59,245 nucleotides of DNA from a virus (lineage: Duplodnaviria; Caudoviricetes): the IMG/VR virus record IMGVR_UViG_3300021093_000083, positions 1 through 59,245 of that record; one strand, given 5' to 3'. Below, piece by piece: positions 1 to 32,934 of the stretch. The notes under the pieces were generated by a model that did not search any database, was not told the origin of the DNA, and was given only the letters and a program-made list of their open reading frames with translations. How positions within the stretch are numbered: the first letter of the stretch is position 1; every line of letters starts with the position of its first letter. The position numbers were made by a program, and so were the translations under genes.

Positions 1-111
1 GAGCTGATGCGTTTGGTAGGCGATCAGATCGAAGAAAACCTCTCTAGCTATAGCGACGAGGAACTGATTGATGAGGTTGGAGAATACTATCCTGAACTGT
101 TGGAAGATTGA
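1..111 (+). CDS. 3' end of small acidic early-region hypothetical protein (partial)
   Basis: Manual translation of frame 1: ELMRLVGDQIEENLSSYSDEELIDEVGEYYPELLED*, TGA at 109-111; next ATG at 115. Confidence 0.7.
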   Translation, partial: ELMRLVGDQIEENLSSYSDEELIDEVGEYYPELLED

Positions 112-114
112 ATC

Positions 115-255
115 ATGCACAAGTCCACTCTAGATCTATTCTCAAACCATGAAGATGAACGCAACGAGATAGATGATGCGTTCGATTCTGCACTTGAAGA
201 AAGAGCTGCAGAACTAGAAATCACTGTTGACTATTACATTGCCGAGTTTCTCTGA
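115..255 (+). CDS. 46-aa acidic hypothetical protein (cyanophage early-region type)
   Basis: Manual translation MHKSTLDLFSNHEDERNEIDDAFDSALEERAAELEITVDYYIAEFL*; packed 3 nt after the previous stop and 2 nt before the next start; below the ORF-track cutoff. Confidence 0.7.
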   Translation: MHKSTLDLFSNHEDERNEIDDAFDSALEERAAELEITVDYYIAEFL

Positions 256-257
256 TC

Positions 258-443
258 ATGAAAATCATCACCAATTCCACTCCCGCTGATACTTTCTACT
301 TTAACTTTGACCTGCGTGATCTTCAATCAAGACTGCAAGATGAAAATACAGCATTTGTAGAAATCTCTCTGTTTCGCTATTACATTGCTCTTTATCCTGA
401 TTGTATTCAATGGGGTAAAGTAGATGAAGATGGTTATCTTTAA
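258..443 (+). CDS. 61-aa hypothetical protein
   Basis: ORF track; ATG start, tightly packed with upstream ORFs. Confidence 0.65.
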   Translation: MKIITNSTPADTFYFNFDLRDLQSRLQDENTAFVEISLFRYYIALYPDCIQWGKVDEDGYL

Positions 444-5842: not shown

Positions 5843-5986
5843 ATGGCAAAATCAAAAATTGGTTTGGTAAAGACTAGCTATACCCCTGGTAAACCGAAAA
5901 AAACTCGGCAAGGGCGTAGTCAAAATACACATCTTGGAGCATCTGCACGAAATGGTCGTAAAAAAAGGTATCGTGGACAAGGATGA
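5843..5986 (+). CDS. 47-aa highly basic protein ending KKRYRGQG
   Basis: Manual translation MAKSKIGLVKTSYTPGKPKKTRQGRSQNTHLGASARNGRKKRYRGQG*; fills the gap between PAAR and ORF 5983 with an ATGA overlap. Confidence 0.8.
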   Translation: MAKSKIGLVKTSYTPGKPKKTRQGRSQNTHLGASARNGRKKRYRGQG

Positions 5987-6707: not shown

Positions 6708-7118
6708 ATGGAATACAAATACGAAGTAACTCCAGAAGAATCTAGATCCTTTAAGGACATTAGTTTGTCATTGTCTAGAAATCCTCTTACTGGAGACATA
6801 AATATTTTAAAAGATGATGTGTCAATTAAGAATGCAGTTAAAAACATCATTCTTACTAAACCTGGTGAAAAACTATATGAACCTTTTTTTGGGTCTAAAG
6901 TAACTGATTTATTATTTGAACCTCTTGATTTTATAATTTTAGATGAAATTAGAACTGAAATATTCCGAGTCCTAATTTTATATGAACCAAGAATAGAAAT
7001 TGAAATAGTTACTTTAACAGAAACCGAACAAGATTATCAACTTGATTGTACAATACAATTCAAAATTGTAGGTGAATTAGAAACAAAAGAACTTTCGTTT
7101 TTATTAGAGCCACGATAA
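6708..7118 (+). CDS. gp25: Baseplate wedge subunit gp25
   Basis: FKDISLS..RNPLTGDI; IKNAVKNIILTKPGEKLYEPFFGS; YEPRI motifs; directly upstream of gp6. Confidence 0.93.
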   Translation: MEYKYEVTPEESRSFKDISLSLSRNPLTGDINILKDDVSIKNAVKNIILTKPGEKLYEPFFGSKVTDLLFEPLDFIILDEIRTEIFRVLILYEPRIEIEIVTLTETEQDYQLDCTIQFKIVGELETKELSFLLEPR

Positions 7119-18200: not shown

Positions 18201-21200
18201 ATGCATAACATTCCATAAATTCGATAACTCAGGCGAATTGAAGTTTGAAAGTTATTTATTAATTCCAGAAGCTGAAAGAGGATCTGGCATAACACAAGGA
18301 ACATTTCAAATTACAGCTTCTAAATCATTCATCAAAAATAATGATTTATATCTACTTGTAGAAACTGTATATAGACAAATTTCTTCTACGTTAGTAAAAG
18401 ATTTAATCATTATTAAATATGATATTTCATCAGAGCAACCATTAAAACTATCAACTAGTGTTTTATTATCTAGTGGATCTTATGCAATATCTCCGATTGG
18501 AATTTTTGTAGAGGAGTTTGAAAATAGAGAAATTAATATTATTTCAAACATATTAAATCACCCAGGATCTGAAGATAAAGAATCTATTTTACTTCTAAAG
18601 GTAACGGAAGATCAACCAACAAACATCAATACTTTAAGTTTTACTTCAACAAACACATCAGTAAAACTAAACAATGCATTAACAAATTCAAATACCATAT
18701 TCTTATCAAATACTTTCTATGAAAATCAACCAGTGGTATATACATCATTCTTGCCTATTGGTGGATTAGAATCAAATACTGTTTATTATATAATTAACAA
18801 TGACAACGAGAAATTTAAATTGGCAAAAACTCCATCTGGAGCTCCAGTACAGTTAACTTCTTTGGGTGATAATTTATTGAATGCACATACCATTTCTCCT
18901 GTTCTTATTCCATCATATGATATTTCTCTGCAAAGAAGAATTTCTTTTGATAATGAATTATCTATAGATGATATTGCATACCAACAAATCAGTGTTTCTG
19001 CAAAATCTTTTGATGTAAATGAATCTAATTTTGTCATCTCATCCACATCTAATAACAAACCCTATTTAATTAAAATAAACAAATCTACTTTTAGTGTAGA
19101 TTTGATCAAAGAAGTATCTGGAATTACATCTTCACTGAATAAACATTTCATTAAATTCAATCAATTTAATGAAATATATTTTGCTTTCAACAAACAAATA
19201 GTTAGACTTGATATTAATGGAAACGTTATTAAACAAGTAACAATTCCATCTTATACATCAAATCATGAAGTATCTTCTTTATTCTTTGATTATTTTGATA
19301 ATGTAATTGTCATTTTAAATGATAACAGCGGAAATAACAGTAAAGTTGTTGTCAATTATTTTGATTATAAACTTGATTATTTGAAAACACAAACTATATC
19401 AGAATCCGATGTAAATATTTTAGTTTCATCTTCTGTTTTAGATTTATACAACAGTATATATTTTACTATCACAGAATCTACAAATAATTTCTATTCATAC
19501 ATTTATAGAACATACAAAGAACTTCAAAATAATACTTCAAACGATATTACGATGTCTAATTCGACATCATTAATCACTGAATCTAAACTTGACAATTTTA
19601 CAATTTCATTCACAGATAATTCTAATATCATCGGCCGTCAAGGAACACAATTTAGTAATTTCTCTATCACTGATATTAATATCTTTGACACTGATTGTCC
19701 TAAATCTTATCAACTATCTTCTACTTTTGCAGATATTTTTTCAGAAAAAGTATCTACTAAAGGATCAAAACCTGTATTTGATATTACTTTAAACAAAAAA
19801 TATTATATTGAAAAAGATGCTATCCAATTTATTTCACCAGTAGTAACTTACCAATTAAATAAAACTGTAAACTATCCTATAGGATCTACAGTTGTATTTA
19901 CGGATAATGAAATTCTATCAAATACTTATTCTGGTGTAATTTTAGATAAAGGAATACAAACCTTAACAGTTACAGAATTTTCTTCATCTAATCCAAGTCT
20001 CATACAAAATATTCTTGATAATTCAAATGTTAAACTTAAAAATGAAAATCCATTCTACAATTCTAAGATTAACAATACATTTGTAAATTCTGAAAAAATA
20101 GAAGCTAAATTACAAATTTCAAATATTACTGCAGATTCTGTATTTTTACCAGGCGATACTGTTGAATTTTTAACTCCTGCTACTGGAAATACATTTGTTT
20201 ACAGAGGAAAAGCAACAATACTTTTTTATAACGAAACAACAAATGTAATTTCATTTAAAAATGTATTTGATGATGGAATTTCAGAGTCTACACGAGTTAG
20301 AATTACTAAGACCATAGGTGGAGAGAATACAGTAACAGCTTTTGCTGAGTTCCTTTATGCTACTGACTGGGATTATGTTGATAAATTTGAATTTGAAATT
20401 CCATCAGAATATGAAGATGATTATATTTTTGAATCTGATAATATTACAAATGGATCTATAGTTTCCATAAAGGTTGTTAATTCTGGTACTGACTATACTG
20501 TTGCTCCTAGCGTAATCGTTCAAAATCAACCTGGAGTAAATGGTAGTGGTTTAATAGCAATAGCAATTCTAAATGCAAATGGAGGAGTTGATAGAATTCT
20601 AGTAGAAAATGGTGGTGCTAAATTTACTAAAACACCAAACATCATTCTTTTGGGTGGAGACGGACAGGGAGCCACAGCAAAAGTTACAAGAATGAGATTT
20701 GTTAGTGAAGTTTATACAATACAAGTAATAGACAGAGAACAGAATTTAGATTTAACAAGTTCTACATCTTATGATGATGTTGAACTAGGAGATGTTATTA
20801 CTCAAACTTCAACTTCTGCATCTGGAATTGTAGTTTCTAAAAATAGAGATCTTATAAGGGTTAAATTGTCAAATCAAAGTAGATTTGACACTTCCGCAGT
20901 TTCTATATCTGGAGTTAGAACAGAATCTACTTATTCTGCCACTAATGTTGGTATAACTTCGGTATCACCTTGCGTATTTTTCAGTGGTGAATCGACCACT
21001 ATGAAATCTGTATTAGATGAATATGATGGTAATTACGTAAATCAATTTTATCCACAATTAACTGTAAATTCTAATGATATTATTTCTATTTCCAGACTAT
21101 ATGGTGTAAGTAAGATAAACTTAATTACACGATTGTTTGAATATGTTTATCAAATATCTGGTGAAGATCTAGTACATGAAGATAAAATCTTCATTAAAAC

Positions 21201-24200
21201 TACGGATGACCATAACTTAAGAGAAAATTCTTTGGCATCTCTGATCCTTCCACCTACATACTCTCAGATTAATTTAGTAGATCAAATTCTTTCAGAAAAT
21301 GAATTTATCTTTAGACTATACAATATTGACTTAAATAATTTACCACATAATAAATTTAATTCTTCTACATCCGAACTATATTACAAAACTCCATCATTTA
21401 ATATGGTGTATGGACATTCCTATAGATTTGATGTATCAGATTTTAGCAATACTGGAACTTTATTGAATTTCTCTAGAGATGATAGTAATAGAGTTGTATA
21501 TACCTTTAATAATGTTGTAAGAAATAATATTGTCCCTGGTCAAGTTGGATCATTTGTTGATTTTGTGGTTGAATCTAACGCTGGACAACTATCATATTAT
21601 TTCAATGAAGCTAATTCTGATGGTAATAATTTTGTACTACCAGATTCTACTATATCCCTAAGAGAAACTCCCTATAATGGAACCTTTAGAGTCCATAGAG
21701 TACTGAATGATACTCAATTACTATACCCATTACCATACAAACCAGAATGTGATGCTTTTGTTTTATCTGGTAATGAAAATACTACAAAATATCTATCATA
21801 CTCAGAAACTTCTTCTGGATCTATATCGGAAATTTCTATATTTAATAATGGTGGATACTTTAAAGTTCTTCCAAGAGTATCTGAAATTTTATGCCCTAGA
21901 AAAATTGAAAAGATTGAAATTTTAAACGGAGGAACAGAGTACGAACCTGGAATTTATAGAGATGTTCCTATTTCTGGCGATGGTGTTGGTGGATTAGTTG
22001 ACATCACAGTTACTCCAGAAATAATAATAAATGATCTTGATGAAGAAATAATTACAGGTAGAATTACACAAGCAGTAGTTATAAACCCTGGTGAAAGATA
22101 TACTGAAGCCACTATTAACATTGTTGATATTCCAGGAATTCTTGGATCAGCTTCAAATGGATCTGGTGGACAACTACAAGTTGTTATCCCGCCACCTGGC
22201 ACTGGAAGTAGCGTTCTTCCATATAGCGAAAAGGTTGGAAGTATTAGAAAACTTTCTAATCTAAATGTTGGTTTTGACTATACTCATGATTATACTCTAA
22301 AACCACAAATTAAGTTTCCAATATCACTACAATTAGTAAATGCTAAAGTCATTTCAGAAATCTTAATTGATGATCCTGGATTTGGATACACATCTACTCC
22401 TATCATTCTTATTGAAGGTGGCGGTGGATCTGGTGCTGCAGCTGTTGCAACAGTTAAAAATAATAGAGTATCTGGCATTGAACTTGTTAGTGCAGGTTCT
22501 GGCTATTTCTCTGAACCAAATATTATCATTCAATCAAAAATTCCATATGTAGTTAATTTAGATCTTAATTTAATTCAGTTTAAAGTTCCTCATGGAATTC
22601 CTAATGCATCTACAATTAAGTTAAGAGCTGACGTAGTAGATGGAAATAATAACGTAATACTGCCAATTGTTAATTATCCTGGTGGTATGAATAATTTAAT
22701 AGATCCTGATAATAGTGTAACTGGAGCATACCAAACTACATTATCTTTATCTGCTATTGTAGGTGAAAGTAATGGATTACTTCCAAATCAACTTAGAATT
22801 GCTATTAATAAAAACGAAGCTCTATTAAACAACTATTTGAACTTTATTACTACTGGATCGCCAACCCAATTCTTATTAACAGAAGTTTTTGGAGCAAAAG
22901 CAAGATCGGTTCTAAAATCATCTCAGTTCTTAGGTAATGAAGTTATTAATCAACTCGAATCTCAAATTGTAAATGGTGTCGAACAAGAAGTAATTACATG
23001 TGTTTCAAAAGTTCTTCCCAATTCTGGTTGGATTTCTGGACCTAATATTTTAAGATTAAATGTTTTAGAGGGTGAATTTGGAATAGGCAAAAAAGTAGTA
23101 GGTTTATCCTCAGAGTCATCTGGTATTATTAACAAAATTATTTCTGCTAGTGGATTTGGTGAAATTGGATCTACATCTACAATCGATGGGAAGTTTTATG
23201 AAGAAACTGGTAAATTGAGTTCTATCTCTCAAAGATTGCAAAGTGAGTATTATCAAAATTTTGCATACCTTATAAAAACTACAACTCCATCAGAAGACTG
23301 GAGAAATCTTGTATTAGATAATTTACATCCAATTGGATTCTCATTATTCTCTGAATATTCATATGAAACTAATAGTTCTCTACCAAAACTTAAAGCATCA
23401 ACAGCATTTAGTAGAGATATTTCTGTTGACGCTGCTCAGAGAAGAGGATCTAGAATTTTTTCGCCAGGGTACGTCGAAGATGTTCTTAATCTAAATGAAG
23501 TTTCTGTAGTCGGTAAAAAACTTATTACGTCTGAAAATATTATCACATCGTTTGTAGAAAAGATTGTAAATATTTCTGATAACTTTGATGGAGCAACAAC
23601 TACTTTTGATCTACAAGTTAAAAGACTTATTACTAATCTAGATGGTAGTACTACAGAAGTCATAGATGCTGTTAGAAGCAATGAAAGATTCTTGATGATA
23701 TTCTTGAACAATACTCTACAATCTCCAGATTCTTATGTGTTCTCAAATGGACAAATTACATTTGATGAAGCTCCATCTGCTAGATTAGTATCAAAAAGTA
23801 GAAACGTTAAATTTACTAATCTATATCCACCAGTAGGAAAGTTTGTTCAAGATGAAAAGTTATACGTCGTAAGAGTAAAAGAATTTAATATTGATGGAAT
23901 AAATATCTGGCAACAGACAGTAATAATTCAATCTTCTACTAATCCAAATATTAAAATTGGAGATACTGTAAAACAAAGTGATATCAATGGAGTTATCACT
24001 GAAATCGGAGTTGTATTTGAAAATAGTATCTATACTGTAACTTTAGTTGTCGTATTCACTACAACTGATGAGACAATTATATCCCCTGAGAGGGATCTTA
24101 AAGTATTTTATAATAATGAAGATCTAATAGGAACAACTTTTGATGTTACTTATGTAAGTACAAATCAAATAGCTGATCTAAGACCATTTAAATTTGATAT

Positions 24201-27200
24201 CCTTGAGGGATCTGAAGTCGTTAATGATAAAGTTGATATCTTTTCATATCAAAATCTCGAACAAGAAAGAGAGTATTCTGTAAATATATCTGCATATAAA
24301 ATTAACGACAATCTAAATCAACTGTCGGAGGATGCTCGAATAATTATAAGATTATTTGATTTTGAGTTTAATCAATATAAAGTAGATGAAACTTCAAATT
24401 ACGTTACATTGTCTAATGATGAATTGGGACCTTTCATTCTATCAAGCAACGCAAGTACAATTTCTCCATCTGATAGTAAGACAGATTTAGCTTATGATGT
24501 AAATGAAACTAATCTGTCAATTAGATCAATTTTTACATTTGATAGTTTCTTAAACTATAATCAATCAACACCATCTTTAGTAGAATTAAATGTTGGCGAT
24601 GTTTTAACATCAACAGTTAGTAAAGGACTTGCAACTGTAGTTTCTGTGAATGAAGTTACAAAAGAAGTTGAAGTTTCTATAAAATCAAATATTAATAATC
24701 CATTCATTAATGAAAATGAAACGCTTCAATCTAGAACAACTCAAGGTGAAATTATAGAAGGCAATCTAACAAACTTTGTTTTCTTTACAACTCAAAATGC
24801 AAAATATAAAGTAACTAAGATTAGATTCAAGAGTGATGATGACAATACATTTACTGATGACAATACTCCTTTACCAGTAGTTCTTACAAATGATCTATTA
24901 ATTTCTAAAACTTACGGAACAGCTAATAATCAAGATTCCTCTTCTATTTTCCTTTCCTTAAATGATTTAGTGGTAGGTGAAAAGAGCAGAGCTTCATGCA
25001 AGATTACTGAAATAACTAGAATTAATAACATCAATGAAGTTGAAATTAGTCCAGGCACACTATTTACTGGATATATCTTTAACAGAGTTAATAATCCAGA
25101 TAATCCAAACGTATCATTAACTGATATATCAAAATCTTATATTGTTCCATTTAATAAATTAGAATCTTATGGAAGTTTATATTACAAAGAAATAGAATCT
25201 TCTAGACTTTTATTAGATGATTATCTCTATAATGAGTCTATTGGAGATAGATTCAAGTCAATTCAACTTGATGTTGAATATGGCAATTCTTATGAATTTA
25301 ATGTAAACGATACATTAGAAATAGTCAGAGTATCTGTTGATGTCGAAGAAGCAGGTAGTAGATTTAGAGATGGTAGCAATCTAATAAAAGCAAACCGTCA
25401 AGAAATTGTTGACCGTGCAGCAGCTGAAATTGCTATTCAGTTCCCTGATTTCTCCTATCCTGGTGATCCAATAACAACTGCTGTATCTAGATTTAAAGAT
25501 GCTTATCGTCTAATCCAACTAAACAGAACAGCAATTATTGATACTGCTTTTGCTGCAATTGCTCCTGCGTTCCCAACTTTTGTTATCAACGCAACAAATA
25601 CAGATAAGTGTAAGAGAGATATTGGTATCTTCGTCGATTCTATATCTCTAGACATCGCTCAAGCTGGAGGAAACGTATATACTCGTAAATTTGTTCTTTC
25701 ATATTTTAATAGCAACACTCCTATTACTAATGGTCTTGTAGGAGAAGAAGCACAATCAAATGTTGCCTTTAATGCGGCTTGTGAAGAAATGAAAAAAGCA
25801 GTCACAAACCAATTAGCAATTACAGATCTAACCATCACTCCTGGTGCTGCTACCTTTGGCGGCGGCGGTGGCACTATCCCCAACAATAGCGTAAATGCTT
25901 GTGCTGATGTTCGTTCTGCACTTGATAGTTTAACACTTATCGTAACAACTCGTATTGCTGCTGGTAATATAACTGGTCTTCCTGCTGAATCAGTATCAAC
26001 TACTGTTCCAGCTGGAGAAGCTAAGTGTAAGAGAGATATTGGAATTATTGTTGATGCTGTAGTAGAAGATTTATTTAGAGGATCTAATGTCAATATAATT
26101 GAATCTACAAATGCTTATTTCAATAACGGTACTCCTATTAGTAATGGATTAGTAAATGAAGAAGCACAATCTGTAGTTGCTTTCAACAAAGCTCGTGATG
26201 TAATGAAACTGGCAATTAATAACCAGTTATTTGTTAAAGATTTAACAATCCAAGGAGATTATCAGGTTAGTTTCTCGAATACAGACCCTGATGGTTGTGC
26301 TAATGTCAGAGCAATGATTGATACTCTAATATCAATTATTACAACTACAATTACAGCAGCTGATCCAGATCTGTTGCCAGATCCAAACCCAGGAAGAGCC
26401 TTTGTTGCCGGCGAATTAGTAACAATTTCTGATGGTACTACAACATATGAGTCAAATGTATTAAGTTCAGATAATGTAAATTATATTATCTCACTTGAAA
26501 ATATATATCAAAATGATCAAATAGTAATAAATACTGAATTATTAGATCTTACTGGATATACTGTTTCTACTAATAGAGGAGCTTCCAATATAGAAATTGT
26601 AGCTCCAGTAAAAGATCTTGATGTTACGAGAACAACTGTAAAATCAAGAACATATGATATTACAACTAAGTTTACTTTAAATAGTATAACTGGACTTTCT
26701 GTTGGACTAACAGCAACTCAAGGATCTATAGTAGGTAAAGTAGTAGACATTATTGCAAATGATATTTATATCAATCATGCTTCATATGACACTGAAAATC
26801 ATTATGTGACTGGAAATATAGTATTTAATACCATACCTGCAATTACTAAATCTGTTACTGCTAACCCAGCAAATAGAGAAACTATTTACTATATTTCTAC
26901 ATCAGAAATTGTCCCTCAAATTAATAAGTATCAACCTACTCCAGGCACCATTCATTCGTATACTCCTTGGAATGATCTTTATGATGTTCTTGATAATAAT
27001 AGATCATTTATTATTGATTATGTTTATGAGTTAATAATCACTGAATTTGCATACTTATCTAATAAGAATACAATAACCATTGGAAGTTGTAAAAATGATC
27101 TTGCGTTAGTGTTAAACGCAATTATAAATGATATTAAACTTGGTGGAAACTATAATACAGTTCTTGCAACTAGACTCTATTTTGATTCTAATAATGAAGT

Positions 27201-30200
27201 GAACTTCCTTAAAGGTGAAGTTGAAGAATCTATCTGGTCTTACTCAAGATTAAAAGATTTCATCAAACTATCTTCTAGAAATTTTGAAGTAGTACATACT
27301 TGCAACCTAGTTAATACTCAAAATTATATTGTCGTTTCAGATCCTACTGGAATTGTTAGAGGAATGCTAGTGACTACGGATCAATTTAACGTAGATATCT
27401 ACGTTAAGTATGTCAGTGGAAATAAGGTATATCTAATGACAGAATCTTTCACTGATTACATATTAGTTGGAAACTATTCTGCACAAGAGGTAACATTTAA
27501 TTTTGATAAGTTTAAAGTTAATCCTCAGTTTGTATCCGTTCTTTATAATGTTCCTATACAATATTCTTCAGATGTAACTAGTTCTACCATTTTAGATCAA
27601 AATATTTCAGACCTTGTTGATGTATTATTAAATGCAATAAATCCAGATTCACTAAGAGTCTATAAGGATGCTGTTATTGAATTATTAGAAACATATGAGG
27701 ATGTTATCGATGATGTATATAATGATCTTAAGGTACAGTTTGATAACTTAACTATTCCAAATGATAATCTAGACAAGTGTCAAAGAGACATGAAGGTTGT
27801 TTCTGAGTCTGTATTTGACGATTTGAAGTTTGGTGGTAATGTTAATACAATTAGAACATCAGAACTCTATGTTAATGGCGGTTCTCTTTCTCATGTGGAA
27901 ACTGAACTTATTGAAACCGCATATGCTTTCTTCAAGTTAGAAATATCTTATAAAGAAATTATTAACAATAGTACAAACTATACTACTCAAGAAAAGACTG
28001 ATATCCAAGAAAGAATTACAGAGTTGTTCCAATTATTGATTAGTAAGATTACGAATGATGCTACTGGAACTGTTCAGGATGCTGCTGCTCAAATTGCAAG
28101 AAATGAGAGGTTTATTGTTGATGAAGCTTTCTTAATTACACTAGATACACAACCAACGGCATTCTCTCAATCTGAAATAACTCAGTTGTATTCATATGCT
28201 TATTCAGTAGTCAAATCTACAATTAAAAATTTACTTTTAGGAAGCAATGAATATGTATTAGATGCATTAACTGCTTTAGGTGCAACTTCTTCTTTCTATA
28301 GTAATTCATCTAAAAAATCTTTTGTTCAAAACTTCTTCACTAGAGTTATAAGTTTATCAAAACTATCAACGATTAATTTCTATATTAACGCTGCAGAGGA
28401 TCAATATGTGGTCCAAGAAAGTGTTCTTACATACAAAACAGACCTTACCATCTCAGTTGACCCTGCAGGATGGTCCTACTGTCAATCAGTACACAATACA
28501 TTAGATACTTTTGGTATTATAATCAATAATTATTGGACCAATCTATCTTTACCAGATGTGAGCATTGTTGAATTTACATATTTCCCTAAGAGATTGTATC
28601 CTGAAAATTACGTACAACGTCCTATAACCAGCTCTATTTCTGAAAATGATCTATGCATCTTAAAATCATCTACTTTAACTAAGACTGCTTTTGTAAATGC
28701 AATTGATTCTGGAATAACTAAAATTTATGATCTACAAAAACGATTTGATCTTGATGATGAAGATGGTACTATTGAAAAATCTAATCTTGTTGGTAGCTTT
28801 GTAAATACATCAATCTCAGTAACATTAAAAGATATAAATGATAATGGATCAGTAAATGTTTCTATTACTGGAAATGGATCTAATATTTCTGTTGGTCAAA
28901 CTTTCACTCAAGATAATGGTTTCTCTTCAATAATCGAATCGATTTATAACGTATACATTCTTAAGAATGTATACGGAAATTTCTATAAAAATAACTATAT
29001 CTTTGGAATAGATTCTGGTTCAACATCAAATTCTTATATTAGTTCATTTGAAAGAAATACAGCCGTTATAGAAAAATCAATTGGAGATAGACTGATCTTT
29101 GATAGTACATCTGTAGTAGGATCATTTACTTTATATGATTATGTTTATGTAAAAGATACTACATACGAATCTAATGTTGTTTACACTTATCAAGGATTTA
29201 ATGGTCAAAGAACTCAATTCCCTCTAATTGTAATATCTCCAACAGGAGACATTCAAGATTACTACCCATCAGTGGAAGATTCTCCAATAATTGTATCCAT
29301 TAATGGAGTCATTCAAGAATTTGATAATGACTATACAACGTCATCTAATTTTATAACTTTTGATAATCCTCCAACTAAGGACGATGAATGTCTAGCTGTT
29401 TACTATGGTAAGTGGAGAAAGATTGACAACATCTCTCCACAGTTTGATGGAATCACTCAAAGTTTTGGTATGGAAATCGGAGGATTGCCATTTGCTATTT
29501 CAGTTTTTGGTAATGCAACAAATATTATTGTCGATAGAAACTGTTTATTTACAGTAAACGGAGTAGTTCAAGTTCCTCAAGAAGGATTTACTGTAGATGG
29601 TTCTAGAATTAGATTTTCTTCTGCTCCAAAACCAGGATCCAGTTTTGTTGGTTATGTATATGTCGGTTCGGCTATTGACGTTGACTCTATTGAAGTTATT
29701 CCTCAAATTGAACCAACTGATATTATTAGATTAAATAAAGAGGATACAAATAGGATTGTTGCGACAGTCGATAGCTTATCTTCAGTTACAACATTTGAAT
29801 ACCCTGGAGAGAAGATTGGAAGAATTGCAGCTGGAACTGCAACTATAAGAACAGGCAAGATAATTGGAGCCTCTTTGACATCAGGTGGTTCTGGTTATAT
29901 TAGAAGACCAAAAATTAAAATCAATTCATCCAGTGGTGATGAAGCGAAATTGACAGCTCAACTTGGCGTATCAAATGTAGAAGTCATTAACGCTGGGTCT
30001 GGATATCTAAAACCATCTGTACAAGTAATTTCAACTACTGGAACTGGATTTACTGGAGAAATTTTATTTGAACCAGATTCAAATAATACTCAGAGGATCT
30101 CAGTTATTAAGATTATTAATAGTGGATTTGGATATTCATCAACAGATGAAGTTTCTATATCTAATGTTGGAAATCCAGAAATCCCAGTAGAATTTAAAGT

Positions 30201-32934
30201 CGTAGTAAATGAAGCTGGTGGTATTGAAAATATCTATCCAGTATTGATTGGTATTATCGAAATTAATGAAGGTGACTGGGATGAACAGTTATTTGATCAA
30301 TATACAGAAGACAACTTTAAGTTTAGAATTCGTGGAGCCACAAGTAAATCAGAGGCTGTATTTGTAGGTGGTGGAGAATCTGAAGCTAAGATTTTTGTTA
30401 AAGATATAACAGGTTCATTTGTTCCTGGAGAAAACATTAATATAGTTTCATTTGCAAATAATGTTTCTTTAGGAAAACTAACCTCTGTAGAGTCCTTCTA
30501 CTTAAACGTTGGTGGAAGCGGTTACAATCCTCTAAGATTAAAAGTTACTTATACTGGCGAGGGAACCATTCCTACAGGAGGATTCGTAGAAGTTGGAACT
30601 CAAATTCAATATCAATTTGATACATTCTCCAAACTAAGTGATAGTAATTTTATTATTAATATTGATAAGTCTTATTCTTATGTTGAAGGTAGAGATTTCC
30701 ATATTGGAGAAAAAATTGATGTATATGCAAGATCTAATGGAGTCAAAACTGGAACTGTCAAACATTTTGTAGTTGAATCGTGGAATCCAACTACGTTAAA
30801 ACTTACAGTATCAAAACCAACACCAATAAAAGTAGATATTGTTTTAAATGAAAATGGTTCGGTAACTAATGCTATTGTTATTAATAAAGGAAACAATTAC
30901 TATGATGTATTAAATTATGCAGTAACTCTTGAGGGACAAACGGAAACTGGATATGATGAAGCTTCATTTGAATTGTCAATAGCATCTGTAACAGATATTA
31001 TTGTTACTCCATATACAATTGGTAATGAGTCTTATGATGGATTTGGTAGAGATTACTCTACTTCTGATACTGTTTTAATACAACCAATTGATGAATTTGG
31101 TGAAACCGAAAATGTTGTTGGATCTGGATCTGGAGCAACAATAAAATTAAATGTCAATGCATTTGGTGGAGAAATAGAATCTATTACGATACCAGATAAT
31201 TTAAGAGGATCTCAATACTATACAACTCCTATTATTGTTACCAAAGGTGGTGGAGGATATGGTGTTAAAGCATTAGCATCTATTGAAAATAATTTAGTTT
31301 CTGATGTGGAGTTTGTTTCTAGAGGTGTTGGATTTGAATCTGTACCAGAAATTATTTTCGCTCAAAAAGTACTTCTAACTAAGGAAAGTAAGATTAGAAC
31401 ATATCTAACATCTAAGACTGATAAATTAACTGGATTGGTCAAGAATGTAATTGAAGATGATACTCAAATTTTTGTTTCAAGTACAGGTGGATTTACTTCT
31501 AGTGGAACTTTACTTCTTGGTAAAGAAGTTATTAGTTATAGTGGTAAAACAGCAAATAGTTTTACTGGAATTACAAGAGGTATTAACTTTAACTATGATC
31601 AAAAACTTAGATTATCTTCTGGATTCTGGAACTTCTCAATTAATGACATATTACCAATCATCAGAGTTAATTCTGAAGAGAGTGGAAGTATCACTACAAA
31701 TATAAGAGTGTATTCCTTTGAACCACAAAGTCAAGATGAAGTAATTCCACCATTTTTATTCATTAAGTATGTTATTGATTCACTGGCATTTATTGATGCT
31801 GGCGTTGCTCGTAGCGAGGGTACTCCATCATATGTTGGAGGACTATTTAACACATCACCAAATGGAAATTATATTATTAATGCTCAATCATTACATCTAA
31901 ATAATGTTGATGGATTATCTGAAGGAGATATAGTTGAACAAACTATAGTGGTAGATCAAAATACAACTATAGTCATAAGTGGATCAATTGTTAGAATTAT
32001 TAAAGCTTCTAATAGAATAGTTGTAGAATTAGATGATGATAATACTGAATTTGTTCTTGGACAACTCATTATTAACCCCGATGAACCAGATAAGACAAAG
32101 ACTAGATTTATTACAACTCCTTTTGGAGGAATTGCTGTAGAAAAAATGGGTATCAATAGATTTGATACTACTAAAATCTCTGATGGTCCTACAGATACAG
32201 ATTTGGATTTAATCAAAGATAAGACTTATGTTATCTGTCAATCTGATTCTTCTGTATGTAATTCTCTATATCCACAACTCAAAGGATATTATCTATTAGA
32301 TCCATCAATTATTGAGGAATCAGGTTTCTTAATCACTGATTCTATCTATCCAAGAAATCTAACTGTAGGTGGCGCCCAACCATATGGTTATATATCAACT
32401 GTAGAAAAAGGTCCAAACAATAAAGGATTGACATACAGTGGCGTTAACAATACAAGTAGTGATTATAATGGAGAGATTGCATTAGATGGTGGATATCCAT
32501 TCTCATTATATGGCGTTGAAGAAATTGATCAATTAGGAAATACAATTGCTATCGGCGATAAACTTAGAGATGGAAATGGAAACATTGTTACTGTAGAAAC
32601 TATCTCTGCAGTTAATACAGGAGAAGTTCATCAATCTCAAGTAACAATAAAAGTAAACAAACCAACAACCTACGGTGAATTATTAATTGGACGTAAAGTG
32701 CAGGGTGCTGTTAGTGGATTCTCTGGAATTATTAAGTCTGTAAATATCCCGACAGGAGAAAATTATATCGAACTTGTTCTTGTAAATCTTCTTTATAATG
32801 ATCCATACTACGGATTTATTATTCAATATCAACAAGGTGAGATCATAAATATTTACAATGGTAATGTTTTGATAGTTGAAAATAAGTATACAATTCAATC
32901 TTATGAGTTCAATAACGTATTATTAAGTCAATAA
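9223..32934 (+). CDS. gp7: Giant (7903 aa) gp7-like baseplate wedge initiator with many inserted domains
   Basis: Lies between gp6 and gp8; N-terminal LPDFIRED..LKYYYE; IKNFYSIKGT..YPKD (~11340-11470); YYQNFAYLIK..W..V...LHPIGFSLFSE (~23250-23356). Confidence 0.85.
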   Translation: MEEKLVTSSNVESLLPDFIREDSPQFTNLLKYYYESLERSSYPLDVIYNLTNYYDLDSYTPDKLISKTTLIKNTEKIDSELVVSSTRGFPEEKGSILIQNEIVLYDYRTLSPQIKFIPNITPERVKSRFVVLDEITDQFDGQQTIFDLKLLGKKVFVPTSNHILINLGDSYLTPGVDYVTNNEDNSVPVGSVQFLTAPDESTSNIANLCIIEFLQGYVTETSKILDTVTTTSPKKVFDLKFEGSPYQPIADGYLLVFKNGNLLSLNSEYSLTDTRIIFKNNIVPSDNIFFLSIESQVPRIGTGASAYSIIDHNGQLDSIVVENNGSGYEYDETPKVEIYAETGDLATAYPLINGIRKVLVVEPGYGYDKDNPPSLSFNLTNVGNIKTSVTVKNESVTKVTVLNSGFNIDTEPKVTVVDPKMPVFGTIIIEETGNTGTGYTITGVEILDGGFGLTNGPKLYVDAPPFGEDKKVNRPQTATIVPIIENGQVVDVDIINGGLGFDPENPPRVKSINYRTAEVLDVKVTDGSITEISLLSGGHGYLETPTVYIVDNRYDAEGVYIGGIGAKARAILFNNSITDIIIEDFGSGYSDSNPPSVYISSPKNAQVVAEIGKGQITGFEVVERGFGYLKASFINCSRGTSGLKGFDKNENTIYVNTLPECHPAGTTVYNQNSEYLKYFLRRIKSQFLPEFPDIDFEQYDIRNLIKKIKNFYSIKGTKSSIESFFQTIFDDAVDISYPKDQIVRSSDALWSIDTIMRVELLKGNIEDILGNIIIQNASDVDPEVIYSSSIVDAYSILQTSKKTLYELVLDTNSYEGEFKVSYTTKLSESIDRLDTTITVDSTVGWPETNGYFYISNELVTYKSKSLNQFFECTRAANGVSRFASGGSKVSTNFYIYYNQGQPDEVVMKILGISKTESTVVDNPASNYLEGDVLSLSDLGTDVITNVPGKNFPLVNSWIFNVKKIQDVVLIQVKQKAGKYVGEVLLDKNHNLIRGQSIEIFGASPAIYNGSFTVENLSSTNAKTFDYNLNITEDQFNSLISTFPSAVGDIYLSIPLEKGKSDFRPIERIISESTADVQNCYLTDDYVYVASSGVPSYPIGLTGGERGFLGNSLLPGNQRYLKKFPKQTQVVSEKKVTEYGQLGLFLNGVPLYNYKSDKKIKFGSISRINVLNSGSDYDVEFDPEINVYKTIQTITGLQQIKNPEGVSLKPIVNGSLREIVVLNGGSGYTEPPILTVSGGGGTGAFATAVLSGGRISRVVVDSPGSGYFLKPVINIVGGGAGSGAVLDAVVRGPISSIRIDNPGQGFQENPDIEITTGSGGRAQAIILNGKVRSIGVLSVGSNYTTPPLVVITDKKGKNASAKAIIYTSGVNKGSIERIEVLNGGSGYNKDTVKVEIISIGNGASFSSEIFEWTFNINTQLEGKFDPKDGYVFIGKNNQFGSEYAHTKNPRFLRYLLGDSVLYNEVLNTITELPIQQVTRHSPIIGWAFDGNPIYGPYGFANPATNPGTNTNFIPMKSGWKLKNDRLNGPSTTTYPLGSFVEDYEYSLTTGVTLDRYNGRFCKTPEFPEGVYAYFVTITGTVSSIAEFPYVVGNEFYSVPDQFNFQANALQSNLPKDVIRYRTPYESTDIDVVRKSSDINSSLSTEDNSFNFILEDSQIITGYDQDGNPIYTTLEGYDINDDTFITDDELNPIEFIEESDIEIYNYFPTTEGDAKVDIRISNVNKFETSILEGFTIENGGRNFKVNDTLIFDTSESGGNLPSAKVSSVTGENVSELTFVFEGKKPYAKLTTTTDHGLTYNDKFKVETQPEAESQIQYQPNSYKVKVVNGIERIDVISFGADYDPETQINYRFFNRVLDNIKDVELNSIVDVGGSLKFIEVKNSGSMGLDVSEVKLSLDPPTNVTRTVFYNKKIKNDRTAELELPAGSLENLEKDQIISNDIVLDTNEIQSVTSANISGNNYKVTITTVDSNLITSGKKVLVSGFNNYTSLNGLKTVTDTTGNSFSYTVTQAGLPSTIEVVSKDWDQISSSQSGAHTLAIKQDKSLWAWGQNSFGQLGTGNRTRRKVPFKVSSSQWIAISANGNKSLAIKYVDNNSYGTLWAWGQNSFGELGINSTDPYKTSPVQIGTSNWKKVSSGVNHALAIMSDGTLWAWGRNSFGQLGIGSTTDYSYPVQVSTDTNWTEVHAGSSISAAINSSGKLFVWGDSRNSCLGLGKIASIRILNPGRSGTFTAESTVNFELSGASGKVVSWNPTTRLLILKNFTYTNVPTRDEKLYIGSDVSTSVNYGRLRSIVIHELDDFGSSLEFILTQGTGVFSTGETITSSRGVTATVVSYDSSTKKMKISNRSGEFIRNDIVTGNSSGAKQTFNRYTPQSGTRILVPTLINDSTWTKASSSNRSTFAIKDNGTLWSWGDNFFGNLGTGDLFDRNIPTQIGTSTTWSDVSAGSYHVLGINDSDLYAWGRASSYELGNGSLDTKLAPVEITGITDIGIIEAGNSSSFIIKDMSGTDAPLLVFGNATQGRLGNNKIKGLVSTPTEIQSISVILNPESTIVESSIFAINSTNSIVEVSNIVNSSGQYPNNSEYLDDDIIEVVKDNDELIIDQKITQVLTNNVLPFSSSIRLNNLNNVEIGKLIRVVSEEKSFNATVKDINSVLTLTEVPSSTEIYAGNKITFPVNNNATPPVAVVREFLVTGVSKKGSVTLSISQYTGNDTNIVTATVSSTAGISVGDELYIFGSTADTNLNGTWNIIAVPNSTTFKFGITSPLATGSYLSGLGTAIKSISGTTTLNVSLDMPVSEYQNTSTINGNLDAQVAVTIPSYSLFDEDMIVVSDIDSQSNSIFVRTLITGKSKTTSNPISLSDVSISMYSVTLEGDQNEYDFGNYNSTFFVENTFSNQQSVKYIASNTSTPINGLTSGNIYYIKNVTRYSFSLSAEVDDVETITVTTIPSTSIHRFRSVIRRKIQNSSYAQNKINYTTTSIDKNENLYAFGSTFDSQGTKCITFHKFDNSGELKFESYLLIPEAERGSGITQGTFQITASKSFIKNNDLYLLVETVYRQISSTLVKDLIIIKYDISSEQPLKLSTSVLLSSGSYAISPIGIFVEEFENREINIISNILNHPGSEDKESILLLKVTEDQPTNINTLSFTSTNTSVKLNNALTNSNTIFLSNTFYENQPVVYTSFLPIGGLESNTVYYIINNDNEKFKLAKTPSGAPVQLTSLGDNLLNAHTISPVLIPSYDISLQRRISFDNELSIDDIAYQQISVSAKSFDVNESNFVISSTSNNKPYLIKINKSTFSVDLIKEVSGITSSLNKHFIKFNQFNEIYFAFNKQIVRLDINGNVIKQVTIPSYTSNHEVSSLFFDYFDNVIVILNDNSGNNSKVVVNYFDYKLDYLKTQTISESDVNILVSSSVLDLYNSIYFTITESTNNFYSYIYRTYKELQNNTSNDITMSNSTSLITESKLDNFTISFTDNSNIIGRQGTQFSNFSITDINIFDTDCPKSYQLSSTFADIFSEKVSTKGSKPVFDITLNKKYYIEKDAIQFISPVVTYQLNKTVNYPIGSTVVFTDNEILSNTYSGVILDKGIQTLTVTEFSSSNPSLIQNILDNSNVKLKNENPFYNSKINNTFVNSEKIEAKLQISNITADSVFLPGDTVEFLTPATGNTFVYRGKATILFYNETTNVISFKNVFDDGISESTRVRITKTIGGENTVTAFAEFLYATDWDYVDKFEFEIPSEYEDDYIFESDNITNGSIVSIKVVNSGTDYTVAPSVIVQNQPGVNGSGLIAIAILNANGGVDRILVENGGAKFTKTPNIILLGGDGQGATAKVTRMRFVSEVYTIQVIDREQNLDLTSSTSYDDVELGDVITQTSTSASGIVVSKNRDLIRVKLSNQSRFDTSAVSISGVRTESTYSATNVGITSVSPCVFFSGESTTMKSVLDEYDGNYVNQFYPQLTVNSNDIISISRLYGVSKINLITRLFEYVYQISGEDLVHEDKIFIKTTDDHNLRENSLASLILPPTYSQINLVDQILSENEFIFRLYNIDLNNLPHNKFNSSTSELYYKTPSFNMVYGHSYRFDVSDFSNTGTLLNFSRDDSNRVVYTFNNVVRNNIVPGQVGSFVDFVVESNAGQLSYYFNEANSDGNNFVLPDSTISLRETPYNGTFRVHRVLNDTQLLYPLPYKPECDAFVLSGNENTTKYLSYSETSSGSISEISIFNNGGYFKVLPRVSEILCPRKIEKIEILNGGTEYEPGIYRDVPISGDGVGGLVDITVTPEIIINDLDEEIITGRITQAVVINPGERYTEATINIVDIPGILGSASNGSGGQLQVVIPPPGTGSSVLPYSEKVGSIRKLSNLNVGFDYTHDYTLKPQIKFPISLQLVNAKVISEILIDDPGFGYTSTPIILIEGGGGSGAAAVATVKNNRVSGIELVSAGSGYFSEPNIIIQSKIPYVVNLDLNLIQFKVPHGIPNASTIKLRADVVDGNNNVILPIVNYPGGMNNLIDPDNSVTGAYQTTLSLSAIVGESNGLLPNQLRIAINKNEALLNNYLNFITTGSPTQFLLTEVFGAKARSVLKSSQFLGNEVINQLESQIVNGVEQEVITCVSKVLPNSGWISGPNILRLNVLEGEFGIGKKVVGLSSESSGIINKIISASGFGEIGSTSTIDGKFYEETGKLSSISQRLQSEYYQNFAYLIKTTTPSEDWRNLVLDNLHPIGFSLFSEYSYETNSSLPKLKASTAFSRDISVDAAQRRGSRIFSPGYVEDVLNLNEVSVVGKKLITSENIITSFVEKIVNISDNFDGATTTFDLQVKRLITNLDGSTTEVIDAVRSNERFLMIFLNNTLQSPDSYVFSNGQITFDEAPSARLVSKSRNVKFTNLYPPVGKFVQDEKLYVVRVKEFNIDGINIWQQTVIIQSSTNPNIKIGDTVKQSDINGVITEIGVVFENSIYTVTLVVVFTTTDETIISPERDLKVFYNNEDLIGTTFDVTYVSTNQIADLRPFKFDILEGSEVVNDKVDIFSYQNLEQEREYSVNISAYKINDNLNQLSEDARIIIRLFDFEFNQYKVDETSNYVTLSNDELGPFILSSNASTISPSDSKTDLAYDVNETNLSIRSIFTFDSFLNYNQSTPSLVELNVGDVLTSTVSKGLATVVSVNEVTKEVEVSIKSNINNPFINENETLQSRTTQGEIIEGNLTNFVFFTTQNAKYKVTKIRFKSDDDNTFTDDNTPLPVVLTNDLLISKTYGTANNQDSSSIFLSLNDLVVGEKSRASCKITEITRINNINEVEISPGTLFTGYIFNRVNNPDNPNVSLTDISKSYIVPFNKLESYGSLYYKEIESSRLLLDDYLYNESIGDRFKSIQLDVEYGNSYEFNVNDTLEIVRVSVDVEEAGSRFRDGSNLIKANRQEIVDRAAAEIAIQFPDFSYPGDPITTAVSRFKDAYRLIQLNRTAIIDTAFAAIAPAFPTFVINATNTDKCKRDIGIFVDSISLDIAQAGGNVYTRKFVLSYFNSNTPITNGLVGEEAQSNVAFNAACEEMKKAVTNQLAITDLTITPGAATFGGGGGTIPNNSVNACADVRSALDSLTLIVTTRIAAGNITGLPAESVSTTVPAGEAKCKRDIGIIVDAVVEDLFRGSNVNIIESTNAYFNNGTPISNGLVNEEAQSVVAFNKARDVMKLAINNQLFVKDLTIQGDYQVSFSNTDPDGCANVRAMIDTLISIITTTITAADPDLLPDPNPGRAFVAGELVTISDGTTTYESNVLSSDNVNYIISLENIYQNDQIVINTELLDLTGYTVSTNRGASNIEIVAPVKDLDVTRTTVKSRTYDITTKFTLNSITGLSVGLTATQGSIVGKVVDIIANDIYINHASYDTENHYVTGNIVFNTIPAITKSVTANPANRETIYYISTSEIVPQINKYQPTPGTIHSYTPWNDLYDVLDNNRSFIIDYVYELIITEFAYLSNKNTITIGSCKNDLALVLNAIINDIKLGGNYNTVLATRLYFDSNNEVNFLKGEVEESIWSYSRLKDFIKLSSRNFEVVHTCNLVNTQNYIVVSDPTGIVRGMLVTTDQFNVDIYVKYVSGNKVYLMTESFTDYILVGNYSAQEVTFNFDKFKVNPQFVSVLYNVPIQYSSDVTSSTILDQNISDLVDVLLNAINPDSLRVYKDAVIELLETYEDVIDDVYNDLKVQFDNLTIPNDNLDKCQRDMKVVSESVFDDLKFGGNVNTIRTSELYVNGGSLSHVETELIETAYAFFKLEISYKEIINNSTNYTTQEKTDIQERITELFQLLISKITNDATGTVQDAAAQIARNERFIVDEAFLITLDTQPTAFSQSEITQLYSYAYSVVKSTIKNLLLGSNEYVLDALTALGATSSFYSNSSKKSFVQNFFTRVISLSKLSTINFYINAAEDQYVVQESVLTYKTDLTISVDPAGWSYCQSVHNTLDTFGIIINNYWTNLSLPDVSIVEFTYFPKRLYPENYVQRPITSSISENDLCILKSSTLTKTAFVNAIDSGITKIYDLQKRFDLDDEDGTIEKSNLVGSFVNTSISVTLKDINDNGSVNVSITGNGSNISVGQTFTQDNGFSSIIESIYNVYILKNVYGNFYKNNYIFGIDSGSTSNSYISSFERNTAVIEKSIGDRLIFDSTSVVGSFTLYDYVYVKDTTYESNVVYTYQGFNGQRTQFPLIVISPTGDIQDYYPSVEDSPIIVSINGVIQEFDNDYTTSSNFITFDNPPTKDDECLAVYYGKWRKIDNISPQFDGITQSFGMEIGGLPFAISVFGNATNIIVDRNCLFTVNGVVQVPQEGFTVDGSRIRFSSAPKPGSSFVGYVYVGSAIDVDSIEVIPQIEPTDIIRLNKEDTNRIVATVDSLSSVTTFEYPGEKIGRIAAGTATIRTGKIIGASLTSGGSGYIRRPKIKINSSSGDEAKLTAQLGVSNVEVINAGSGYLKPSVQVISTTGTGFTGEILFEPDSNNTQRISVIKIINSGFGYSSTDEVSISNVGNPEIPVEFKVVVNEAGGIENIYPVLIGIIEINEGDWDEQLFDQYTEDNFKFRIRGATSKSEAVFVGGGESEAKIFVKDITGSFVPGENINIVSFANNVSLGKLTSVESFYLNVGGSGYNPLRLKVTYTGEGTIPTGGFVEVGTQIQYQFDTFSKLSDSNFIINIDKSYSYVEGRDFHIGEKIDVYARSNGVKTGTVKHFVVESWNPTTLKLTVSKPTPIKVDIVLNENGSVTNAIVINKGNNYYDVLNYAVTLEGQTETGYDEASFELSIASVTDIIVTPYTIGNESYDGFGRDYSTSDTVLIQPIDEFGETENVVGSGSGATIKLNVNAFGGEIESITIPDNLRGSQYYTTPIIVTKGGGGYGVKALASIENNLVSDVEFVSRGVGFESVPEIIFAQKVLLTKESKIRTYLTSKTDKLTGLVKNVIEDDTQIFVSSTGGFTSSGTLLLGKEVISYSGKTANSFTGITRGINFNYDQKLRLSSGFWNFSINDILPIIRVNSEESGSITTNIRVYSFEPQSQDEVIPPFLFIKYVIDSLAFIDAGVARSEGTPSYVGGLFNTSPNGNYIINAQSLHLNNVDGLSEGDIVEQTIVVDQNTTIVISGSIVRIIKASNRIVVELDDDNTEFVLGQLIINPDEPDKTKTRFITTPFGGIAVEKMGINRFDTTKISDGPTDTDLDLIKDKTYVICQSDSSVCNSLYPQLKGYYLLDPSIIEESGFLITDSIYPRNLTVGGAQPYGYISTVEKGPNNKGLTYSGVNNTSSDYNGEIALDGGYPFSLYGVEEIDQLGNTIAIGDKLRDGNGNIVTVETISAVNTGEVHQSQVTIKVNKPTTYGELLIGRKVQGAVSGFSGIIKSVNIPTGENYIELVLVNLLYNDPYYGFIIQYQQGEIINIYNGNVLIVENKYTIQSYEFNNVLLSQ
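12478..14007 (+). other. Split YHYH-like domain within gp7
   Basis: VASSGVPSY...LGLFLNGVPLYN (~12478-12680), then inserted Gly-rich repeats, then HSPIIGWAFDGNPIYGPYG...LDRYNGRFCKTPEFPEGVYAYFVT...FPYVVG (~13657-14007). Confidence 0.7.
15280..16830 (+). repeat. Seven RCC1/BLIP-II repeats (beta-propeller) within gp7
   Basis: LWAWGQNSFGQLG, LWAWGQNSFGELG, LWAWGRNSFGQLG, LFVWGDSRNSCLG, LWSWGDNFFGNLG, LYAWGRASSYELG, LLVFGNATQGRLG. Confidence 0.9.
25357..28530 (+). repeat. Phycobiliprotein-like (globin-fold) helical repeats within gp7
   Basis: KCKRDIG (Cys codons 25609, 26026), SCKNDL (27088), KCQRDM (27778) plus one Cys-less copy (~28070-28280); most are preceded by a D-x-x-x-x-I/L-x-x-N-R-x-x-I-I/V-D helix and followed by GGN/GSN. 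Confidence 0.6.

Follow-up and report, generated by a model that had tools for sequence, protein, structure and literature searches.

Cyanobacteria and the red and cryptophyte algae are known to use phycobiliproteins as antenna subunits. The DNA analysed here, from a marine cyanobacterial virus, is a record of 59,245 bases from IMG/VR (IMGVR_UViG_3300021093_000083; its whole length is called the window below), a fragment estimated to be about 32% complete, which encodes a T4-like structural module. Within it, an open reading frame (ORF) of 7903 amino acids (aa), situated where T4 has its baseplate wedge protein gp7, carries between aa 5379 and 6436 several copies of a helical module. These are true but distant homologues of phycobiliprotein subunits, with the globin-like fold of family PF00502, a conclusion that is firmly supported. 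A preliminary description of the window had proposed this homology and had set it beforehand as the deciding point, and it is borne out by Pfam, by profile-profile comparison and by predicted structure. At this locus an antenna fold with intact chromophore-site residues recurs, partly nested, as building material of virus particles. Capture of the domains by the virus, of which the description also spoke, would be one possible direction of transfer.

Among the described systems, the phycocyanin alpha subunit CpcA is the best sequence match, sharing with the module the K-C-x-R-D-I-G motif at the Cys84 bilin site, the layout of helices B to E and the fold. Unlike CpcA, the module lacks the N-terminal X-Y hairpin, shows no sequence likeness past helix E, has a second Cys that is absent from CpcA and occurs many-fold and partly nested within a 7903-aa virion protein; a pigment is known for CpcA, whereas here it is only predicted. 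The best structural match lies with the beta chains (CpeB, CpcB and cryptophyte beta chains; 5aqd_M). A Cys of the modelled module stands directly before the last helix, where beta subunits have Cys153/155: C141 of the aligned unit precedes helix 142-161 and pairs with CpcB Cys153 in a global hhalign alignment of only 8.7% probability. However, the helix E motif of the module is alpha-type, and the module is neither a free subunit nor a phycobilisome part. ApcE, which attaches its bilin without a lyase, resembles the present case in placing a phycobiliprotein fold within a large multidomain scaffold protein, and ApcE-type chains come next after the beta chains in the structural ranking (4xxi_A, Z 13.3 and 14.1; also 7eyd_19, 9wg7_N2 and 7sc7_BD). 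Yet such a domain occurs once in ApcE, itself a single antenna protein of the cell, whereas the modules form arrays in virion proteins. The Ig-like and FN3-like repeats of phage fibres likewise occur as many tandem copies in giant tail and baseplate proteins, and they are the model for a purely structural explanation. These decoration or spacer domains are beta folds without a conserved ligand-site motif, whereas the module is all-helical, nested and has kept its chromophore-site motif.

The 7903-aa protein has 28 Cys in total, and its four C-x-[RNK]-D motifs all fall within the module stretch, a clustering beyond what chance would give. As had been described, TGT codons stand in frame at 25609, 26026, 27088 and 27778, giving C5463 (C-K-R-D), C5602 (C-K-R-D), C5956 (C-K-N-D) and C6186 (C-Q-R-D), and the codons proposed for the second Cys, at 25900 and 26296, give C5560 and C5692, both in (A/G)-C-A-x-V-R. 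A phmmer self-search with unit 5420-5600 found four further copies in the same protein, at 5378-5410 (E 4.1e-5, N helix only), 5601-5731 (E 6e-27, core only), 5916-6008 (E 8e-8) and 6147-6219 (E 3.8e-6). In hhalign comparisons with the profile of the unit family (alignment A1, below), copies 3 and 4 each reach 96.8% (E 3e-10 for the former; E 2.3e-10 over 134 columns for the latter), and the "fifth copy" reaches 22% (E 9.4e-4, score 27.7) with its C-terminal half alone aligned, against scores of 11-15 for three flanking stretches used as controls. Five copies had been claimed; of these, four are solid and one, the fifth, is weak. In line with the description, the fifth showed no first Cys, and a third beta153-type Cys, C6420 (codon 28480), lies in its aligned half. 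The features are as follows.

9223..32934, + strand: giant ORF of 7903 aa in the position of T4 gp7 (baseplate wedge), which holds all the modules.
25354..25467, + strand: N0, the N-terminal helix pair of the outer module (aa 5378-5415), predicted to pair with core 2 (phmmer 4.1e-5; NNCC model).
25480..26022, + strand: inner complete module, N1 and core 1 (aa 5420-5600), with C5463 (in K-C-K-R-D-I-G) and C5560 (AlphaFold2, VIA-align, profile).
26023..26415, + strand: core 2 of the outer module (aa 5601-5731), without N helices of its own, with C5602 and C5692 (phmmer 6e-27 to unit 1 positions 43-180).
26965..27285, + strand: module 3 (aa 5915-6021 aligned), N helices and core to helix G, with C5956 in C-K-N-D and no second motif Cys (hhalign, phmmer).
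27658..28059, + strand: module 4 (aa 6146-6279, aligned over its whole length), with C6186 in C-Q-R-D and Lys at the position of the second Cys (hhalign, phmmer).
28309..28539, + strand: possible module 5 (aa 6363-6439), C-terminal half only, with C6420 at the position of the second Cys (hhalign 22%; weak).

Past helix G of module 3, window positions 27286-27657 encode a beta-looking stretch of about 90 aa followed by a helix-like one (…DQNISDLVDVLLNAI…). Read from the translation, this is possibly a domain inserted in the G-H loop of module 3.

When the 1058-aa stretch was searched by hmmscan, Pfam PF00502 scored 25.7 bits against a cut-off of 22.2 (E 1.3e-5). A PF00502 profile search of the whole window gave no matches at E<=0.001 although the cut-out stretch passes, so the match is borderline for the 7903-aa protein. 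The database entry of that protein (P0014) carries no PF00502 tag, a single unit scores 14.5 bits, below the cut-off, and the 3903-aa C-terminal half of the ORF matches no Pfam family at E<=0.001. Alignment A1 combines 40 units from the window and 71 IMG/VR loci, and 35 of the 40 match PF00502 at E<=1 (best 3e-6). Searched against PDB sequences, the A1 profile gave 42 matches, nearly all of them phycobiliproteins; the best, CpcA (E 0.0012), spans profile positions 5-60 only, which correspond to helices B to E, and aligns Cys84, Arg86 and Asp87. In the profile alignments the first Cys and the Arg-Asp pair of the module therefore correspond residue for residue to CpcA Cys84-Arg86-Asp87, as had been proposed, and hhalign also places them on CpcB Cys82-Arg84-Asp85. 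The CpcA and CpcB used as real reference sequences are encoded by the cpc genes of Acaryochloris marina plasmid pREB3, identified there by PF00502. Compared with the phycocyanin strings quoted in the preliminary description, they carry K-C-V-R-D-I-G-Y-Y, A-C-L-R-D-M-E, L-N-G-L, K-M-K/R and G-D-C-S in that order. Against the A. marina CpcA and CpcB together hhalign gave 92.6% (E 4.6e-7); the individual scores were 41.5 (CpcA) and 29.8 (CpcB), compared with maxima of 16.8 and 14.8 from twelve column shuffles each. In K-C-x-R-D-I-G, six of seven consecutive residues are common to the module and CpcA, while identity to phycobiliproteins is otherwise 11-19%.

With a single sequence, phmmer against the PDB found no phycobiliprotein, only a chance match to a renin receptor (E 0.51), and a profile is thus needed to see the relationship. 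No match was obtained when the module stretch was compared with phage records by megablast, and tblastn against plasmids, aimed at real cpc genes, yielded chance matches only. A profile of the C-terminal half of the module (A3) gave three PDB matches, all to Csn2 (E 1.4-1.6) and none (0/3) to a phycobiliprotein, so the likeness of this half is one of fold. The sequence likeness is accordingly limited to helices B-E, where it is closest to phycocyanin alpha, and the remainder of the module is related by fold, best to beta subunits. The proposal of a "beta155-like" Cys is weaker than that of the first Cys: position, directly before the last helix, and pairing with CpcB Cys153 in the global alignment speak for it, but that alignment is of low probability and the C-terminal half gave 0/3.

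The inner module, modelled by AlphaFold2 from alignment A1, reached pLDDT 89.2 and pTM 0.88. Among the 40 Foldseek matches listed, 39 are phycobiliprotein entries and the other is 8u0f_C, titled only "Bacterial fluorescent protein"; the best E is 2.3e-3 and TM scores are 0.42-0.64. The fold match to PDB phycobiliproteins that the preliminary description anticipated was thereby obtained. VIA-align, a structure search independent of Foldseek, was run against 48,161 chains. For both the inner module and a larger model (NNCC, below), its top eight matches are all phycobiliprotein or ApcE chains, with Z 12.0-14.9 and 12.6-15.8, respectively. The best in each case is 5aqd_M, a phycoerythrin chain (Z 14.9, rmsd 2.2, 139 residues aligned with the inner module; Z 15.8, rmsd 2.0, 140 aligned with NNCC). 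Photocobilin, globin-coupled sensors and the stressosome protein RsbR rank just under the phycobiliproteins (Z 7.6-11.1). The models, with pLDDT 88-89, show the globin-like helices A, B, E, F, G and H. What is missing is the N-terminal X-Y hairpin, which real subunits use to form the alpha-beta pair known as the monomer: structural alignments begin at chain residues 30-34 (48-50 in ApcE-type chains), and hhalign starts at CpcA 27 and CpcB 33, again past the hairpin. The modules are therefore not canonical phycobiliprotein subunits.

When the N helix pair and the core were searched apart with split HMMs, arrays of the form N^kC^k became visible, with each N element made up of one helix pair about 33 aa long. 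The 7903-aa protein and its orthologues are NNCC, and relatives are NNNCCC and NNNNCCCC. A model of the NNCC unit, built from an alignment of 25 sequences (A2; 364 residues), reached pLDDT 88.3 and pTM 0.88, with block pLDDT 86-98 for the N0 helices (residues 2-30) and with the core 2 helices at 221-336. Phycobiliproteins align to residues 43-203 of this model, which are the inner module (N1 and core 1), whereas two globins align across 1..334/335 with 132 residues aligned, as is expected if N0 and core 2 form an outer module. On these models, the first two copies are nested as N0-[N1-core1]-core2, one copy being predicted to sit as an inserted domain in the B-E loop of another. The preliminary description mentions neither this nesting nor the link to cpeT treated below. 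Six distant giant relatives (P0087, P0088, P0092, P0107, P0108 and P0120; 25-30% identity) show no N-helix matches, and their 13-31 core matches follow one another at intervals of about 70-90 aa, so that their array style differs from the nested N^kC^k one.

Residues at the site were counted across 120 giant relatives, which supplied 449 distinct full core copies. None of the 449 lacks the first (alpha84-type) Cys or the Asp at +3; the motif reads C-x-R-D in 393 copies and C-x-D-D in 48. The second (beta153-type) Cys is found in 357 of the 449. Two orthologues of about 7800 aa both keep all seven motif Cys, including C5956 and C6420, while the two non-motif Cys of the stretch are kept in 0/2 and 1/2 of them. 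The motif site is under selection. As a fallback, the preliminary description had allowed that the Cys pair might merely form a disulfide. The first Cys is kept in the 92 copies that lack the second; with conservation thus independent of the second Cys, a simple Cys1-Cys2 disulfide is disfavoured as its cause.

The module family is large, and giant phage virion proteins account for nearly all of its occurrences. Searches recovered 168 giant relatives, with a precomputed PF00502 tag on 75 of the 120 listed, and 207 matching phage records, comprising 147 from Synechococcus, 51 labelled "Cyanophage", 8 from Prochlorococcus and 1 labelled "Marine". At E<=0.001, 1185 cluster representatives among 1.84 billion match, 329 of them at E<=1e-30, and a single protein can hold as many as 35 matched stretches. 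A scan of prokaryotes with one genome per species, which works from patterns and does not prove absence elsewhere, gave three loci only (L072-L074; 30-32% identity), in marine metagenome-assembled genomes (MAGs) of Flavobacteriales TMED113 and Euryarchaeota TMED129; these are probably mis-binned phage contigs. The module also occurs in 29 small free-standing proteins of 81-322 aa, many of them from contigs of at most about 2 kb and likely to be fragments; no phycobiliprotein is among the 29. Full-text searches, with subscription journals outside their coverage, found no paper on phycobiliprotein-like domains in phage virion proteins, and such domains are unmentioned in the available portions of PMC10151467, PMC10452541, PMC3037559, PMC2984593, PMC6628666, PMC12801897 and PMC10665884.

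The best single reading of the conserved site is that the modules bind a pigment, a prediction from sequence and models to which we give nearly an even chance. On this reading the modules would have kept the ability to bind a linear tetrapyrrole. A bilin supplied by a host or phage pathway, either phycoerythrobilin or phycocyanobilin, would be joined within the infected cell by a thioether to the alpha84-type Cys and held by the invariant Asp and the Arg. The beta153-type Cys, where present, would receive a second bilin from a T-type lyase, either phage CpeT or that of the host, and the assembled baseplate or fibre would then be pigmented. Such pigment might serve to sense light for adsorption, but photoprotection, or a ligand that does no more than stabilise the fold, would be just as compatible. 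A further step, a virion with its own bilin photoreceptor in which modules are loaded with bilin in the cell, CpeT serves the beta153-type Cys and light changes the baseplate or fibres such that adsorption occurs only in the light, we consider unlikely. If true, it would explain both the light-dependent adsorption of T4-like cyanophages, for which host photosynthesis is not required (PMC6628666), and why cpeT is kept, and a pigment-bearing, possibly light-sensing virion would be new in virology. Homology together with the kept attachment residues makes pigment on a virus particle testable. If the modules bind bilin, the function of phage cpeT and the light-only adsorption of some cyanomyoviruses also come within reach of bench experiments; if they bind nothing, an antenna fold reused as structural material, with k-fold nested insertion (N^kC^k), is still unusual.

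Phages whose adsorption has been compared in light and dark allow a limited comparison. According to PMC6628666, P-HM2 and P-HM1 do not adsorb in the dark, S-PM2 (reference 18 of that paper) requires light for adsorption and does not require host photosynthesis, darkness weakens the adsorption of P-SSM2 but does not prevent it, the podovirus P-SSP7 is able to adsorb without light, and dim red light has no effect on adsorption. Module matches number 4 in P-HM2, 5 in P-HM1 and 12 in S-PM2, and there are none in P-SSM2 or P-SSP7, with P-SSM2 still at 0 in two further searches. These counts fit a light-sensing virion.

The lyase gene cpeT also bears on the reading. In S-PM2, S-RSM4, S-WAM2, S-CAM1 and ACG-2014e, which represent five genera, the module-bearing giant fibre gene is preceded on the same strand by cpeT at a distance of 0.4-1.5 kb. 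In Syn1, of a sixth genus, 1.0 kb separates the end of cpeT from the first module match, which falls in a 4026-aa open frame. Among IMG/VR loci with an S-PM2-type cpeT, modules follow 533-2077 nt downstream on the same strand in 20 of 21, the remaining locus having only 189 nt of sequence downstream. Across 17 isolate genomes, 11 have both cpeT and the module, two the module only, none cpeT only and four neither. By Pfam threshold, cpeT was found in 11 of the 16 myovirus genomes searched, compared with 12 of the 16 genomes of Sullivan et al. (PMC3037559), so one divergent cpeT may be missed by the threshold. That paper calls the role of phage cpeT unresolved. [quoted passage not shown] A complex predicted for S-PM2 CpeT with an S-PM2 module was rated "weak support" (score 0.48; best of three controls 0.00), with contact agreement of at least 94% between runs and partner pLDDT of at least 84. 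The mark used was reached by 116 of 157 solved complexes and by 2 of 215 mismatches; passes at 0.60 or less comprise only 18 of the 157 solved complexes together with both passing mismatches, and such a pass is more often wrong unless the contact was likely beforehand. Phage cpeT genes fall into size classes: frames of 187-189 aa (S-PM2, Syn1) adjoin the module-bearing fibre gene, and those of a second class, 134-160 aa long except in Syn9 (224), match Pfam more weakly and in split form and lie 40-60 kb from the module gene. In S-PM2 (NC_006820.1, 165928-177267), 16 RefSeq tRNA features, all under one locus tag, lie inside the 3792-aa giant fibre frame, which looks like an annotation error.

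Several observations weigh against pigment binding and its use in light sensing. The usual pairing with a partner subunit is absent along with the X-Y hairpin, and because the C-terminal half lacks sequence likeness, as the A3 search showed, the comparison falls short of most pocket-lining positions. The figure of 449/449 is partly circular, the motif being the best-scoring part of the profile; since the motif drives detection, copies without it are under-detected and the figure is inflated. Copy 5 of the 7903-aa protein was missed by the HMM, and one aligned unit (L053) reads K-L-L-K-D in place of the Cys motif. The light comparison is made up of five non-independent phages, of which two are near-identical, one is a podovirus and one, P-SSM2, belongs to a single module-less clade. 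There is no cpeT in the window, in a record only about 32% complete; modules occur without a cpeT match in S-ShM2 and P-SSM7, and cpeT is far from the module gene in nine genomes. The raw Fisher value for co-occurrence of cpeT and module, 15/2380 = 0.0063, overstates the case, because in the gp23 tree the myoviruses without both (P-SSM2, S-SSM7 and S-SM2) form one clade (support 100/99) and the co-occurrence amounts to one event; it was rejected as statistical evidence after that tree. The adjacency of the two may be inherited gene order. According to PMC2984593, P-SSM2 has bilin-synthesis genes, and as it has no module, such genes do not need one. Finally, fibre modules with a purely structural role typically form long tandem and nested arrays like those of this family, which reach 35 matched stretches per protein.

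That last point leads to the explanation that the phycobiliprotein fold was recruited as a rigid helical block or spacer of baseplate and fibres without any ligand, its Cys, Arg and Asp being kept for folding, for packing of the nested domains, or for disulfides formed after lysis in oxidising sea water. We take this to be a serious contender, though one that we would sooner doubt than accept. The many-copy arrays and N^kC^k nesting, the lost hairpin, the end of sequence likeness beyond helices B-E and the persistence of modules in two genomes without a cpeT match all speak for it, and full-text searches, subscription journals lying outside their coverage, found no paper on pigmented virions. 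It leaves unexplained, however, why the Cys and Asp essential to phycobiliproteins should be invariant (449/449) in a domain otherwise 11-19% identical. Nor can an intradomain Cys1-Cys2 disulfide be the reason, with the first Cys kept in 92 copies that lack the second. In CpcB, Cys82 is on helix E and Cys153 in the G-H loop, and if the two Cys of the module are placed likewise, as the fold match suggests, they would be far apart. It is rather improbable that the modules instead bind another tetrapyrrole or small ligand, or act as mimics that, during adsorption, engage a host surface component or the host proteins by which phycobiliproteins are recognised, such as lyases, linkers and NblA-type degradation factors. 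Globin-like folds do bind varied ligands, and photocobilin, sensor globins and RsbR score Z 7.6-11.1; the predicted CpeT contact (score 0.48 against 0.00 for the control, "weak support") would also fit a mimic. Yet the motif that is kept is the bilin-specific one, nothing points to a particular alternative ligand, and a baseplate protein does its work outside the cell, away from the cytoplasm in which host phycobilisome factors are located. A chance or convergent resemblance, with an unrelated helical repeat that happens to carry C-x-R-D, is close to refuted. The sub-threshold single unit (14.5 bits), the 3903-aa C-terminal half without a Pfam family at E<=0.001, the single-sequence phmmer search of the PDB without a phycobiliprotein and a Foldseek E of only about 2e-3 would be in keeping with it. 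They are outweighed by the profile-profile E of 4.6e-7 with 24/24 shuffles far lower, by 35/40 related units matching PF00502 at E<=1, by a Foldseek-independent top eight of 48,161 chains that are phycobiliproteins (Z up to 15.8, rmsd 2.0, 140 aligned) and by the six of seven consecutive residues (K-C-x-R-D-I-G) common with CpcA.

The position of the modules on the virus particle is indicated by the neighbouring genes, given here by window coordinates.

PAAR protein: within the structural module of the window.
6708-7118: gp25/53-like wedge subunit.
7119-9197: gp6.
32960-34477: gp8.
Further giant ORFs in the window: 4004, 2053 and 950 aa.
Neck proteins, tail sheath stabiliser and small terminase: also encoded in the window.

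The gene order is gp25/53-like, gp6, giant ORF, gp8; the 7903-aa ORF lies between gp6 and gp8 and is therefore in the gp7 position. Pfam Baseplate_wedge (PF23786) scores 25.8 bits against it at aa 698-743, just under the cut-off of 27, and a relative is labelled "baseplate wedge initiator" in UniRef. PHROG labels for the module stretch are "short tail fiber", "tail fiber" and "virion structural protein". From the gp6-X-gp8 order and the source names of relatives we infer that the modules are displayed on the virion. The 7903-aa ORF also contains a YHYH domain (aa 1442-1578; window 13546-13956) and RCC1-like beta-propeller repeats (aa 1960-2246; PF25390, 227.9 bits, and PF00415; window 15100-15960). 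The 4004-aa ORF (34501-46515), a second giant virion-type protein, has DUF4815 (E 4.7e-62) and phrog_358, of unknown function, and gave no module match. The 2053-aa ORF (47058-53219) begins with a Major tropism determinant domain (Mtd_N, E 6.3e-12), which suggests a receptor-binding fibre. Inside the giant ORF, G+C content dips to 0.266 at 18001-20000, compared with about 0.31-0.33 around it, with a GC skew of -0.169.

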